Translations under genes and position numbers: made by a program
IMG/VR virus record: IMGVR_UViG_2706796412_000001
Coordinates: 1 to 64,000 of that record
Length of the DNA stretch: 64,000 nucleotides
Direction: 5' to 3' (one strand)
From: Bixzunavirus tonenili
Taxonomy: Duplodnaviria; Heunggongvirae; Uroviricota; Caudoviricetes
The notes under the pieces: generated by a model
Databases searched by the model: none
What the model saw: the letters and a program-made list of their open reading frames with translations, nothing else
Told to the model about the DNA's origin: nothing
Shown: positions 33,543 through 45,328 of the stretch, in pieces
Layout: each line of letters begins with the position of its first letter
How positions within the stretch are numbered: position 1 is the first letter of the stretch

Positions 33543-35798
33543 ATGTGCTACGGCTGCCAGCAGGTCCTTGCCGACCTGCAGGACTACCACGAGGGCGCAC
33601 GGATCACCGCCGCCGAGTACCAGGTCCCGCCGGAGTGGCAGCGCTACTACGACCACATGAGCGGTCAGCCGGATCGCTCGCAGGCCGCGCACCTGATGAT
33701 GCCGACCGAGCTGGTACACCACTACCGCGAGTACGACCGTGACCCCGCCGACCCGAACTACCAGGTGCTCAAGAAGGTCATCCGGGAGCACGGCAATCAG
33801 ATCCGTCAGCCGCTGGTGATCAACGCCGACGACACCCACGGCGTGCTGACCGAGGGCAATCACCGCGCGGCCATCGCGCGCGAGCTGGGCATCACTCATC
33901 TGCCAGTGCGGGTCCAGTACGGCCCTAAAGCCCAGGCCAACGAGGGCACCCCGGTGCCGCACCATCCTGCATTCAAGCAGTGGCTGGACGCGAACATGGG
34001 CACGTTGCGCACCGCCGGGGCCAACGGCGACCTTCCTGAGCTGCGCTACGAATACTCCATGGGCCCGAAGACCAAGCGTCACAGGCTCATGGCCTACGAC
34101 GACACTCTCCGCGTCGGCTGGCTCGACTGGACCCCGGGCGGAGAGGTCGAGAACATCGAAATTCATCCCGACTATCAGCGTCGAGGCATTGCCAGCGAGA
34201 TGTGGCGACGTGCTCAGGACATCGACCCCTACATCAGCCACTCGCGTGCTCAGACATCGGAGGGCAAGGCGTGGGCTGCTGCGGTTGGCGGACGTACCGC
34301 CAGCTTCCACGAGGGCGCACGGATCGCCGCCGCTGAGACCCCGTTCATCGCGCGCGGGATGTCCATCGGACTTCCCGACGATGACCACGACCTATTCCAT
34401 GCGATCAACGAGCACCGGGCCACCCCGGAGCACATGTATCGGCTGCTGACCCACACCGACGGGCGCGCGGGTGTGTGGTGGGGTACCTATCGCGACGACG
34501 AGCACCCCGACCCCAAGGCCTACGGCAGCTTCGAGGACTTCGTCGCGCATGCCGGAATGGGCGAGGAGTCGGTGGCCAAGTATCACGACTCTGGTGAGTA
34601 CCACGACCGCGTGCGCGCGGAAGGCGGCCAGGGCCCTGGTCAGATCTTCGCCGAGGTGCCGGTGGTCGCCGTCGGCACCCGACCCAAGCGCGGGGACGAG
34701 CTGTGGGACCCCGACAAGCACAACCCTGCCGACTCGCTGATGGGCAACTCCTATCTGGACGACAACGAGCCCATCGACCTGCACGAGGTGCACTACAACT
34801 CAGGCCGAGGCTGGGTGAAGGTGCCGATGAAGGGCTACCGTGTCCAGGCCGTGCGGACGGCGGGCGCCTATGACCCATATGTCCCGATTCGCCAGGATGA
34901 TCAGTTCGGCCAGTTCTACGCGCCGACGCAGACCGACGACCAGGGCCGTATTCGGGTACATCGAGGTCTAATCGTCCCGCACGGCACTCATCCCGATCAT
35001 GTTGCTGATGGCGGCGTCGGCCCACACTGGAGTGTCAACTCTCAGATCTCCGAATCATTCGCCGACCCGGACTATTACGGAGAGGGCGACGACGATATCG
35101 GCATGGTGCTGTCTGGTTGGCTCGATCCGACCCATGACACCAATATGGACTCCGACGACCTCACGGGCGGCAGCGGGTATCACAATGAGCAGGAGTTGAC
35201 CCTGCATCCAGGCACTCCTGTACATGTGGATCGGGTGCGGTGGAGACCGACGAATCATGACGGCCACTCCTGGAACGAGCACCCCTGGACTCCGCGCACC
35301 GTCACCGCCTTCTATCAGGCCGACGACTCGCTGATGGAGCCCGACCCGGCGCCATTCGGAGTTCCACGTCGATACGCTTCGATCCCTGATGGCTACAACA
35401 TCCATCTGGTCACCACCAACGGATACGGCGGTGGCACGGTGGCCGCATATCCGAAGACGGTGCGCAAGCCCGGCCCGAACAACTGGCATGCAGGCCTGCA
35501 GTGGGACAACTACGGCAAGATCACTCACGTCGACACCAAGGAACCGTATCGGGGCAAGGGACTGGCCAGGGCGCTCTACGAGCACGTCAAGCAGAACTAT
35601 CGTCCCGATCTCATGCATGACAGTGCGATCAGTGCTGACGGCAAGGCGTTCGCCGACGCCGTGGGTGGGCAGATGTTCGACGCCGACGAATATCAACGCC
35701 GACGCGATCAGCATGACCAGGAGAGGAAACTCCCCTACGAGCAACGCAGTCAGATGTGGAAAGAACGTGGCTGGCCAAGCTTCGGTGTGCTAGATTGA
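33543..35798 (+). CDS. polyvalent protein: ParB-like nuclease domain plus GNAT-like acetyltransferase motifs (752 aa)
   Basis: ParB/Srx motif QPLVINADDTHGVLTEGNHRAAIARELGITHLPV; GNAT-like IEIHPDYQRRGIASEMWRRA and YRGKGLARALYEHV; internal repeat HEGARI(T/A)AAE twice. Confidence 0.6.
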   Translation: MCYGCQQVLADLQDYHEGARITAAEYQVPPEWQRYYDHMSGQPDRSQAAHLMMPTELVHHYREYDRDPADPNYQVLKKVIREHGNQIRQPLVINADDTHGVLTEGNHRAAIARELGITHLPVRVQYGPKAQANEGTPVPHHPAFKQWLDANMGTLRTAGANGDLPELRYEYSMGPKTKRHRLMAYDDTLRVGWLDWTPGGEVENIEIHPDYQRRGIASEMWRRAQDIDPYISHSRAQTSEGKAWAAAVGGRTASFHEGARIAAAETPFIARGMSIGLPDDDHDLFHAINEHRATPEHMYRLLTHTDGRAGVWWGTYRDDEHPDPKAYGSFEDFVAHAGMGEESVAKYHDSGEYHDRVRAEGGQGPGQIFAEVPVVAVGTRPKRGDELWDPDKHNPADSLMGNSYLDDNEPIDLHEVHYNSGRGWVKVPMKGYRVQAVRTAGAYDPYVPIRQDDQFGQFYAPTQTDDQGRIRVHRGLIVPHGTHPDHVADGGVGPHWSVNSQISESFADPDYYGEGDDDIGMVLSGWLDPTHDTNMDSDDLTGGSGYHNEQELTLHPGTPVHVDRVRWRPTNHDGHSWNEHPWTPRTVTAFYQADDSLMEPDPAPFGVPRRYASIPDGYNIHLVTTNGYGGGTVAAYPKTVRKPGPNNWHAGLQWDNYGKITHVDTKEPYRGKGLARALYEHVKQNYRPDLMHDSAISADGKAFADAVGGQMFDADEYQRRRDQHDQERKLPYEQRSQMWKERGWPSFGVLD

Positions 35799-35874: not shown

Positions 35875-35957
35875 GGAGGGTGAGCATCAGGTGATGCAGC
35901 GAGATTGCTAATCCCGTACGGTAACCACCCCGTGAGGTTCGAATCCTCCTCCCTCCG
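35875..35957 (+). tRNA. tRNA-Ser(GCU)-like, class II (hand-folded)
   Basis: acceptor GGAGGGT/TCCCTCC, D-stem GCAT/ATGC, anticodon loop TTGCTAA with imperfect stem, long variable arm, T-arm GAGG-TTCGAAT-CCTC, G73. Confidence 0.4.
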
Positions 35958-36065
35958 CGTAGTACATCTATGGAGGATGAAGCAGCCGCGTAGTGCGGCG
36001 ACCGGATTCGAAACCCGGGTAGCGCGTCATGGCGCTTGGGGAGCGTGCCCTCCTTCCTCCGCTTG

Positions 36066-36149
36066 GGAGAAGAAACCGTCAAGGCTGACGGGACCGCTTG
36101 GAAAGCGGCTCGTGGGTAACACCATGAGGATCGTGCCCTCTCTTCTCCG
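36066..36149 (+). ncRNA. aberrant tRNA-like cloverleaf (8-bp acceptor, 6-bp D-stem with 4-nt loop, GGA anticodon-like loop, long variable arm, non-canonical T-loop)
   Basis: GGAGAAGA/TCTTCTCC closing stem; hairpins CCGTCA-aggc-TGACGG, CCGCTT-ggaa-AAGCGG, GAGG-atcgtgc-CCTC stacked on acceptor; G discriminator. Confidence 0.3.
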
Positions 36150-36150
36150 C

Positions 36151-36225
36151 GCTCCCGTAGCCCAATTGGCAGGAGGCACCAGATTCAGGATCTGGGCAGT
36201 GTGAGTTCGAATCTCACCGGGAGTA
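36151..36225 (+). tRNA. tRNA with Leu anticodon CAG but class-I architecture (75 nt)
   Basis: acceptor GCTCCCG/CGGGAGT, U8A9, anticodon stem CCAGA/TCTGG loop TTCAGGA, 5-nt variable loop GCAGT, T-arm GTGAG-TTCGAAT-CTCAC, A73. Confidence 0.5.
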
Positions 36226-36345
36226 CGTGTGTGTTCCATGTGGCGGATGTCCCGACTGCGGGCCGGTGTACGCGTGCGAACGTTGCGTCAAGGCAGCGTT
36301 CGACCGGGTGCTGGTCCGCTGGGCCTCTGTCCTGGAACGCCTCGC

Positions 36346-36419
36346 GTCTCTGTAGGCAAACCGGAAAAGCCGCCATCTTGAGGGGGTGGTGCGTGCGGGT
36401 TCGACTCCCGCCAGAGACA
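36346..36419 (+). tRNA. tRNA with Leu anticodon GAG but class-I architecture (74 nt)
   Basis: acceptor GTCTCTG/CAGAGAC, D-stem GGC/GCC with 11-nt loop, anticodon stem CCATC/GGTGG loop TTGAGGG, variable TGCGT, T-arm GCGGG-TTCGACT-CCCGC, A73. Confidence 0.5.
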
Positions 36420-36420
36420 C

Positions 36421-36493
36421 GCCGTGGTAGGCCATCTGGCGAGCCGCCGAATTCAAGTTTCGGTGTTTGCGGGTTCGAATCCCGCCCACGGTA
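36421..36493 (+). tRNA. tRNA with Leu anticodon CAA but class-I architecture (73 nt)
   Basis: acceptor GCCGTGG/CCACGGT, perfect anticodon stem CCGAA/TTCGG loop TTCAAGT, variable TGTTT, T-arm GCGGG-TTCGAAT-CCCGC, A73. Confidence 0.5.
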
Positions 36494-36563
36494 CAACCTG
36501 TAGAAAACCTACCGACCTGTTCTAACCAGTAGGAGCAACACCTTCTATCTGGCAGGAGCAGGG

Positions 36564-44360: not shown

Positions 44361-44609
44361 ATGCCGATCATCCGTAATATCAGCTATCACACCATCCAGA
44401 CTCATCACGCCGATGAAGCGGAGTCGCTGGCCTTCTACCTCAACGAGCATGGAGTTTGTGCTCAAGCCAAGGGTGACGCCATCGACGTTCCGGTGCCGGA
44501 CCGAGAGACCTTCGACAAAGTCGAGAAGCTCAAGGAGACCTGGGAGATGTTCTGGGAGACCTCGGACTCGGGCTTGTTCGGCCTGCCGATGTACGTCAAG
44601 GAGGGCTGA
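44361..44609 (+). CDS. hypothetical protein (82 aa)
   Basis: ATG after GGAGGA. Confidence 0.4.
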   Translation: MPIIRNISYHTIQTHHADEAESLAFYLNEHGVCAQAKGDAIDVPVPDRETFDKVEKLKETWEMFWETSDSGLFGLPMYVKEG

Positions 44610-45328
44610 TGCCCGATGTCATGCGGGGTGCGGGCAACCCTGCGTCGTTCCGGGAGAACGGCAGGGTTGTCAGGGCCAGAGTTCGCCATCTGGAAGAGTG
44701 CGTTGCGGCAGGTATTCCTGTGGTAGGTGACAAGATTCAGCGTCATAGCTACATGCGCGACCCGCACAGTGGCGCGGACAACTGCATCTGCGGTCGACAG
44801 GATGGGCACCTTCTGCACATGGGCACTCCGATCATCCGAAGCGCTGACGCCGAGCAGGCCAAGGCGACCGGCGGCATGGTCGCGCTCTACCCATCGACGG
44901 AGTCGGCGCAGAAGATCGTGGTGCCCGGCGGGGAACCGATCGACGACCTGCACCTGACGGTCACCTACTTCGGGCGGGACGTCACCGGGCAGGACCCGAC
45001 CGAGCTGGTCGACTTCCTGTACTACCTGGCCCCGCAGTTCCCGCCGATCGAGGCGAATATCTTCGGTTCGGCGGTGTTCAACTCGACCGGCGAGGATCCC
45101 TGCATCGTCTACCTGGTCGGCAACTCTCCGCACTTGACGCCGCTCTTCCAGCAACTCAAGCGGTTCGCGCTGGAACACTACCCCGGCGCTGCCGAGCAGC
45201 ACGACCCGTGGATCCCGCACGTCACGGCGGCCTACGGCGCCGGAGCCATGGTCGACTACGAAGGCCCGATCCTTTTCGACCGCATCGGCCTGCGCTGGCC
45301 TGGTGCTGATCAGGACTTCAACCTGTAG
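44609..45328 (+). CDS. 2H phosphoesterase (LigT/2',3'-cyclic phosphodiesterase-like) with N-terminal Cys/His segment
   Basis: 239 aa; two H-x-T-x motifs HLTVTYFG and HVTAAYG at the spacing typical of 2H superfamily. Confidence 0.6.
   Translation: MPDVMRGAGNPASFRENGRVVRARVRHLEECVAAGIPVVGDKIQRHSYMRDPHSGADNCICGRQDGHLLHMGTPIIRSADAEQAKATGGMVALYPSTESAQKIVVPGGEPIDDLHLTVTYFGRDVTGQDPTELVDFLYYLAPQFPPIEANIFGSAVFNSTGEDPCIVYLVGNSPHLTPLFQQLKRFALEHYPGAAEQHDPWIPHVTAAYGAGAMVDYEGPILFDRIGLRWPGADQDFNL

Follow-up and report, generated by a model that had tools for sequence, protein, structure and literature searches.

The closest described relatives of the genes treated here are leucine transfer RNAs (tRNA-Leu) that have, where class II carries a long variable arm, a type I body with a short variable loop. 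In Streptomyces coelicolor, a type I tRNA-Leu(CAA) with the 5-nucleotide (nt) variable loop ACAGC coexists with class II tRNA-Leu in one cytoplasm and is leucylated by the single leucyl-tRNA synthetase (LeuRS) of the species; LeuRS recognition is independent of the anticodon, the U8-A14 pair and the 5-nt loop length are important in this tRNA, and neither the E. coli LeuRS nor one E. coli-like Streptomyces LeuRS was able to charge it, a case called rare by Fan et al. (Fan 2019, PMC6614811). A tRNA-Leu(TAG) with a short variable loop has also been noted, in a one-sentence remark without identity or distribution analysis, in a horizontally acquired mycobacterial tRNA gene cluster, a mobile setting whose chromosomal isoacceptor has a normal long loop; an HNH endonuclease is reported in mycobacterial tRNA gene clusters, which fits a mobile origin (Behra 2019, PMC6582537). 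Here we analyse a 64,000-nt stretch of Bixzunavirus tonenili (the window), in which three genes on the plus strand at 36151-36493, with the anticodons CAG, GAG and CAA, very probably are functional leucine isoacceptors with type I architecture, as judged from their sequences.

The window and bases 1-64000 of NC_031080.1 have the same sequence; this record is Mycobacterium phage Tonenili, a Cluster C myovirus of the genus Bixzunavirus with a genome of 161 kilobases (kb), whose host is Mycolicibacterium (Mycobacterium) smegmatis mc2 155. The three genes are annotated as tRNA-Leu in GenBank, and a block of one tRNA-Ser and three tRNA-Leu is annotated in more than 200 related phage records. The tRNA set of Tonenili comprises 32 tRNAs and a transfer-messenger RNA (tmRNA) and covers all 20 amino acids; no Leu tRNA beyond CAG, GAG and CAA was found in the 161-kb genome.

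Structure and leucine identity of the three tRNAs

The original prediction had folded three cloverleaves by hand, and two detection programs agree with it in position, anticodon and shortness of the variable arm. ARAGORN reported tRNA-Leu(cag) at 36151-36226, tRNA-Leu(gag) at 36346-36420 and tRNA-Leu(caa) at 36421-36494, and the Rfam model RF00005 (gathering score 29 bits) matched end to end at 36151-36225 (54.8 bits), 36346-36419 (52.7 bits) and 36421-36493 (51.9 bits), with E-values of 5e-9 to 3e-8 over the whole window, well past chance. To position 73 the CAG, GAG and CAA tRNAs measure 75, 74 and 73 nt, the lengths that had been predicted, and therefore a long variable arm cannot fit. CCA is not encoded in any of the genes; a single C follows each, and the CAA gene begins right after the trailing C of the GAG gene.

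The details read from the letters in the original prediction reappear in the Rfam alignments: 5-nt variable loops (GCAGU in the CAG tRNA, UGCGU in the GAG tRNA and UGUUU in the CAA tRNA), A73 and U8-A9 throughout, the anticodon loops UUCAGGA, UUGAGGG and UUCAAGU, and the canonical T-loops UUCGAAU, UUCGACU and UUCGAAU, respectively. All three also have A14 and G18G19, and retain the U8-A14 tertiary pair and an intact elbow between D-loop and T-loop (G18G19, U54-A58, U55C56). G1.U72 closes the acceptor stem of the CAG and CAA tRNAs. The D-arm of the CAG tRNA has a D-stem of 3 base pairs (bp) with a C13.A22 mismatch and the D-loop AAUUGGCAGG; that of the GAG tRNA reads GGCA-AACCGGAAA-AGCC, a scaffold that we call beta, and that of the CAA tRNA GGCC-AUCUGGCG-AGCC. 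When 30 short-armed Leu tRNAs including these three were aligned and folded with RNAalifold, compensatory double changes were present at 18 of the 20 predicted pairs, the D-stem was again of 3 bp, and U8, A14 and A73 were invariant (A73 in 30/30).

With the type I tRNA-Leu(CAA) of S. coelicolor, the phage tRNAs have in common the Leu anticodon, the 5-nt variable loop, U8-A14, G18G19 and A73. The former, however, is chromosomal, a single isoacceptor (CAA), and its charging is established by experiment, whereas in the phage the type I form extends to all its Leu tRNAs, including CAG and GAG, and is known from sequence. The short-armed tRNA of the mycobacterial gene cluster differs in anticodon and genomic setting (PMC6582537). 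Animal mitochondrial tRNA-Leu, likewise of type I, share a Leu anticodon, a short variable loop and A73 with the phage tRNAs (PMC6614811), but they depend on a LeuRS dedicated to mitochondria, and degeneration of the elbow is frequent among them, whereas the phage tRNAs keep G18G19 and UUCGA.

Isotype models that do not depend on the anticodon also place the three bodies with leucine. In the supplement of an eLife 2023 study (PMC10264068), tRNAscan-SE 2.0 calls the exact CAG sequence Leu/CAG at 59.0 bits with Leu as the best isotype model (65.3; row 32); a sequence one base from the GAG tRNA is called Leu/GAG at 50.1 bits (best model Leu, 58.5; row 17), and a sequence one base from the CAA tRNA Leu/CAA at 48.5 bits (best model Leu, 45.4; row 13). 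Isotype mismatches are frequent among the other tRNAs of Cluster C1 phages in the same table. A73, which together with independence from the anticodon characterizes class II tRNA-Leu, is present in all three, and the marks of the other two synthetases that ignore the anticodon, G3:U70 (Ala) and a long arm (Ser), are absent from them, which favours a leucine reading.

We further scored the bodies against a profile built from 126 type I tRNA-Leu of bacterial chromosomes, their anticodons masked, which represents a scaffold that we call alpha. The CAG tRNA scored 58.9 bits, while the best non-Leu tRNA of Tonenili (Lys) reached 24.4. The GAG and CAA tRNAs scored 22.7 and 22.5 bits, which is background, in the range of Lys, Asn and Arg tRNAs, and their Leu identity rests therefore on the anticodon, the published isotype models and the association of their families with Leu anticodons. 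Whole-sequence identity had been considered as an isotype discriminator and was dropped in favour of the profile, all comparisons falling at 63-72%; to members of the alpha family, the CAG tRNA is up to 84% identical.

Several points weigh against functional Leu isoacceptors of this form. The GAG and CAA tRNAs match the alpha profile no better than other isotypes do, and the isotype score of the CAA tRNA (45.4) is modest; this tRNA also departs from the host type I tRNA in having G37 after A36 and, apparently, U15/U48. In S. coelicolor, charging of the type I tRNA-Leu(CAA) is less efficient, by a factor of about 2.3, than charging of the type II UAA isoacceptor (kcat/Km 6.25 vs. 14.2 s-1 uM-1; PMC6614811). 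Finally, Arg921 of the M. tuberculosis LeuRS has been proposed to contact the long variable arm, a contact that would matter for charging and editing. The first of two options in the original prediction, structurally streamlined Leu isoacceptors, is nevertheless the one supported by the isotype models and by the type I precedent.

Type I scaffolds in bacteria and phages

The original prediction had taken it as given that all known tRNA-Leu of bacteria and phages belong to class II. This premise, which was the source of the extraordinary look of the finding, is refuted by S. coelicolor (PMC6614811), by the mycobacterial gene cluster (PMC6582537) and by our scans of bacteria and phages. The bacterial scan covered one genome per species and used as its pattern a relaxed form of the CAG tRNA D-arm at type I spacing to the T-arm. 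At least 120 loci matched, with at least 123 matching tRNAs by ARAGORN, and all 123 of the listed tRNAs carry Leu anticodons (UAA 73, CAA 21, UAG 16, CAG 9 and GAG 4) at lengths of 74-78 nt. In 98 of the 120 listed loci, the matching tRNA was the only one within the 8 kb fetched, so that these are mostly ordinary solitary chromosomal genes and not parts of arrays. The listed hosts are overwhelmingly Actinomycetota, such as Nocardia, Gordonia, Rhodococcus, Corynebacterium, Amycolatopsis and Streptomyces.

Among the matches listed are seven Mycobacteriaceae with a solitary type I tRNA-Leu(UAA), one of them Mycolicibacterium sp. 050158, which belongs to the genus of M. smegmatis. Over the gene, these are 96-99% identical to one another (90% for locus L353, in a longer alignment), and blastn found no alignable flanks among the seven loci; the genes beside locus L265 belong to paralogue-rich families (ADH-like, ABC transporter). 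The mycobacterial D-arm, GCCC-AAUUGGCAGA-GGC, lacks one G of the D-loop and otherwise equals that of the phage CAG tRNA. Compared directly, the CAG tRNA and the tRNA-Leu(UAA) of Mycolicibacterium sp. 050158 have in common the D-arm GCCC-AAUUGGCAG(G)A-GGC, A73 and a variable loop that fits NNAGU (GCAGU for the phage tRNA, CAAGU for the bacterial one). They differ in decoding, since all listed mycobacterial members of the chromosomal family are UAA, and UAA and CAA predominate in it overall, whereas the phage copy reads CUG. Type I tRNA-Leu is thus native to the Actinomycetota, including the host genus Mycolicibacterium.

Since type I tRNA-Leu(UAA) is native to the Mycobacteriaceae, the LeuRS of the host lineage must already charge this scaffold; for M. 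smegmatis mc2 155 itself, charging of a type I tRNA-Leu(UAA) may be expected by analogy with its congeners. The LeuRS of S. coelicolor has about 967 amino acids and that of M. tuberculosis 969. M. tuberculosis has five Leu isoacceptors. In the study of the toxin MenT3, the tRNA-Leu of M. tuberculosis listed with long variable loops are tRNA-Leu-2, 3 and 5 alone, and two of the five would therefore be short.

The CAG tRNA is the actinobacterial chromosomal alpha scaffold with a changed anticodon, and it is the only one of the three that clearly shares this scaffold. The GAG (beta) and CAA tRNAs do not score as members of the alpha family and use other short-armed scaffolds found among phages. 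Common descent of all three from a host-type scaffold was dropped for this reason, the profile placing the CAG tRNA alone there, and there is no need to derive the three from a class II tRNA-Leu that lost its arm, since a native type I scaffold exists.

Short-armed tRNA-Leu are common in phages. A sensitive BLAST search with the three genes retrieved similar genes of about 74-77 nt, annotated as tRNA-Leu, in 578 phage records, including phages of Gordonia, Streptomyces and Cronobacter, Felix-O1-like phages of Salmonella, E. coli and Shigella, and other mycobacteriophage clusters; six were confirmed by ARAGORN. In IMG/VR contigs, the alpha D-arm signature identified 115 tRNAs, every one of them with a Leu anticodon (all six occur) and 114 of them 74-78 nt long. 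Leu anticodons of all kinds on one alpha body (six in viruses, five in bacteria) are expected if the body specifies leucine. The beta signature came with Leu anticodons in 48 of 52 unique tRNAs, and the D-arm signature of the CAA tRNA was confined to this phage cluster in the sample. In a less biased viral sample, whose contigs were selected by means of a generic non-Leu D-arm, short-armed forms made up 10 of the 46 unique Leu tRNAs (about 22%), 1 of 47 Ser tRNAs and 3 of 25 Tyr tRNAs.

Within the genus, the CAG position is mosaic. It holds a type I tRNA in Tonenili, InterFolia and Spud and an 86-nt class II Leu(CAG) in Lukilu (768-853 of locus L010), Darko (768-853 of L011) and Bigswole (446-531 of L493), and in all is filled by at least four unrelated genes, three short-armed types and the class II gene. 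Among 161 C1 phages, 15 have class II Leu(CAG) in this position (PMC10264068). The exchange of type I and class II at one position implies that the two are functionally interchangeable, and the position looks like a site of cassette-like tRNA gene replacement. In Lukilu, an HNH endonuclease gene overlaps the tRNA block.

A short-armed tRNA-Leu(UAG) on the same scaffold was also observed in enterobacterial phages (Cronobacter phage CR9, Shigella phage Sf17 and other Felix-O1-like phages). Its presence there contrasts with the failure of the E. coli LeuRS on the S. coelicolor type I tRNA, and its charging is a testable question.

Surroundings of the tRNA-Leu genes

The tRNA block begins with a GenBank-annotated class II tRNA-Ser(GCU) on the plus strand at 35875..35957 (35875-35958 by ARAGORN), with a long variable arm, G73 and an atypical closed D-hairpin of 5 bp with a 4-nt loop. 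The Rfam tRNA model did not report it at the gathering threshold; the match kept was to the tRNA-Sec model, at 39.5 bits, under the gathering score of 47 of that model. A near-identical Ser(gct) sequence is without a tRNAscan-SE call in the eLife table (PMC10264068).

Between the tRNA-Ser and the tRNA-Leu(CAG), a gap of 192 nt contains two class II tRNA-like elements that lack annotation here, both on the plus strand and both found, likewise unannotated, in 95 phage records. Element A (35972..36060) matches the tRNA-Sec model weakly (22.5 bits, E 0.076); it has the anticodon loop UUCGAAA (CGA, Ser), G73, a closed D-hairpin without G18G19 and a non-canonical T-loop, AGCGUGC, and its minimum-energy fold is cloverleaf-like. 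A homologue in Mycobacterium phage Nanosmite, an unrelated phage of another family, differs by compensatory changes within its acceptor stem and D-hairpin; its T-region is identical. Element B (36065..36150) has the anticodon loop UUGGAAA (GGA, Ser), G73, a 6-bp D-hairpin with a 4-nt loop and without G18G19, a 7-bp variable arm and the non-canonical T-region AUCGUGC; the z-score of its fold is -4.14, and 0 of 200 shuffles folded as well. In the Bigswole copy of element B, the D-hairpin and variable arm are of different sequence but fold in the same way, and the T-loop is a canonical UUCGACU. If functional, elements A and B would be at odds with a published claim, according to which tRNAs for Ser(CGA) and Ser(GGA) are avoided by C1 phages.

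The 119-nt spacer between the tRNA-Leu(CAG) and tRNA-Leu(GAG) genes (36227..36345, plus strand) forms one long imperfect hairpin with a minimum free energy of -68.4 kcal/mol (z-score -4.43). Its fold is kept in Spud and InterFolia, with nine one-sided changes, one two-sided change and three broken pairs, the changes being mostly between G:U and G:C, and the hairpin is absent from Lukilu, Darko and Bigswole, where the class II Leu(CAG) abuts Leu(GAG). It is possibly a precursor-processing element or site. Between 35600 and 36700, no sigma-70-like promoter was found, and the only two terminator-like matches both lie on the minus strand.

Directly upstream of the tRNA block lies gp097 (33543-35798), annotated as a hypothetical protein of 751 amino acids, with GNAT acetyltransferase domain matches in two regions (about residues 183-226 and 610-699). 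We weighed it as a protein acting on tRNA and found nothing to support such an action. Elsewhere in the Tonenili genome, outside the window at 97314-97385, there is a 72-nt tRNA annotated as tRNA-Stop, with the anticodon CUA (amber suppressor type), and the genome also encodes a PTH2 peptidyl-tRNA hydrolase, an RF-1-domain protein and the tmRNA.

Alternative readings and significance

The original prediction suggested an escape from host anticodon-nuclease or tRNA-depleting defence. Worked out further, this reading would have the short arm and altered anticodon loops resist host toxins that deplete tRNA-Leu, in addition to decoding Leu, so that the phage could go on translating while it infects the cell. 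VapC11 has been reported to cleave the tRNA-Leu(CAG) and tRNA-Leu(GAG) of M. smegmatis in vitro, all three phage Leu tRNAs are scored as different from the host in the anticodon loop (PMC10264068), and they serve the commonest Leu codons, not rare ones. Genes of RNA-repair type in the genome (an RlaP nucleotidyltransferase, a weak 2H-superfamily match, a PNKP phosphatase domain and PTH2) would also suit such a role. Of the neighbourhood invoked in this context, the nucleotidyltransferase exists (gp003, 467-1318, an RlaP-family RNA-repair enzyme; PF10127, 150 bits), and the 2H phosphoesterase corresponds to gp251 (44609-45328), annotated as RNA ligase/phosphoesterase, whose match to the 2'-5' RNA ligase (2H) superfamily is weak (25.7 bits, Pfam cutoff 27); but neither adjoins the tRNAs, the two lying about 35 kb and 8 kb away, and they are therefore not linked to them. 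The mycobacterial toxin MenT3 does read the long variable loop, yet its preference is for tRNA-Ser, with discrimination against tRNA-Leu, and class II Leu(CAG) genes occupy the same place in the C1 phages mentioned above and in Lukilu, Darko and Bigswole. We know of no toxin that recognizes tRNA-Leu through its variable arm. Because the host lineage has a type I scaffold of its own, simple descent explains the short form, and we consider a selected function in defence escape unlikely; descent from an available scaffold accepted by the host LeuRS is the simplest reading.

A broader conjecture, in our view quite improbable, is that mycobacterial (perhaps all) phages favour atypical class II tRNAs, namely short-armed Leu tRNAs and Ser(CGA/GGA) tRNAs with a closed D-hairpin and altered T-loop. 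If true, the atypical shapes would evade toxins or nucleases that read the class II variable arm or the elbow, and the phages would possess a toxin-proof set for Leu and Ser decoding.

That the genes are decaying, non-functional copies still detectable by software is very unlikely. The Spud-type CAG variant is flagged as 'pseudo' by tRNAscan-SE (PMC10264068), the CAG position is highly mosaic, and odd tRNA-like elements adjoin; against decay stand the intact stems, canonical T-loops and Rfam scores of 52-55 bits of all three, the preservation of the fold by family-wide compensatory changes, and their being the sole Leu tRNAs in an otherwise complete set. The GAG-type and CAA-type sequences are, moreover, retained in 125 and 130 of the 161 C1 phages, and the CAG sequence occurs in 58 (PMC10264068).

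The second option of the original prediction was that a synthetase other than LeuRS charges these class I bodies and places another amino acid at CUG, CUC and UUG. A class I body with a Leu anticodon seems mismatched if all bacterial tRNA-Leu are assumed to be class II, and mistranslating tRNAs do occur in Actinobacteria (the tRNA-ProX family in Streptomyces). Most other synthetases, however, need their own anticodon by established identity rules. The mixture of identity elements and anticodon that marks tRNA-ProX-like and allo-tRNA-like mistranslating tRNAs was not found, isotype and anticodon both being Leu, and many Actinomycetota carry the same bodies as ordinary, single Leu genes on the chromosome. 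In eight large genes of the window, CUG accounts for a fraction of 0.622 of the Leu codons, CUC for 0.290, UUG for 0.048 and CUU for 0.028 (published C1 values 0.549, 0.308, 0.094 and 0.035); CUG, CUC and UUG together make up about 96%, and recoding would therefore corrupt the proteome. We also aligned the phage DnaE with 110 homologues of 43-66% identity, many of them themselves phage-derived. The homologues have Leu in 63% of cases at CUG (56 sites), 64% at CUC (23 sites) and 71% at UUG (3 sites), the remaining residues being mainly M, I, V and F, as expected for leucine; other codons taken for comparison are no better conserved (Ile 34-51%, Val 46-53%, Ala 38-56%). Since Leu codons stand at Leu-conserved positions of DnaE, the isotype models rank Leu top and G3:U70 is absent, recoding is rejected as scarcely credible.

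Functional type I tRNA-Leu remain the reading that we prefer, and we infer their expression, processing, modification and charging. The three tRNAs would be transcribed with the neighbouring tRNA-Ser block, their precursors would be trimmed by host enzymes, a CCA-adding enzyme would supply the missing CCA, and the host LeuRS, which does not read the anticodon, would charge them with leucine.

The observation is real but fairly ordinary, because the compact form is documented, native to the bacterial group of the host and common in phages. The window itself gains little from it, its genes being correctly annotated as tRNA-Leu and their architecture having a precedent native to the host phylum. 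For the phage, the three tRNAs read CUG, CUC/CUU and UUG, that is 98.9% of the Leu codons in the eight large genes (98.6% of the published C1 average), and as they are its sole Leu tRNAs, it would therefore have its own leucine-decoding capacity. With at least 120 bacterial loci and about one-fifth of the phage Leu tRNAs in the less biased sample, short-armed tRNA-Leu are far commoner than the searchable literature implies.

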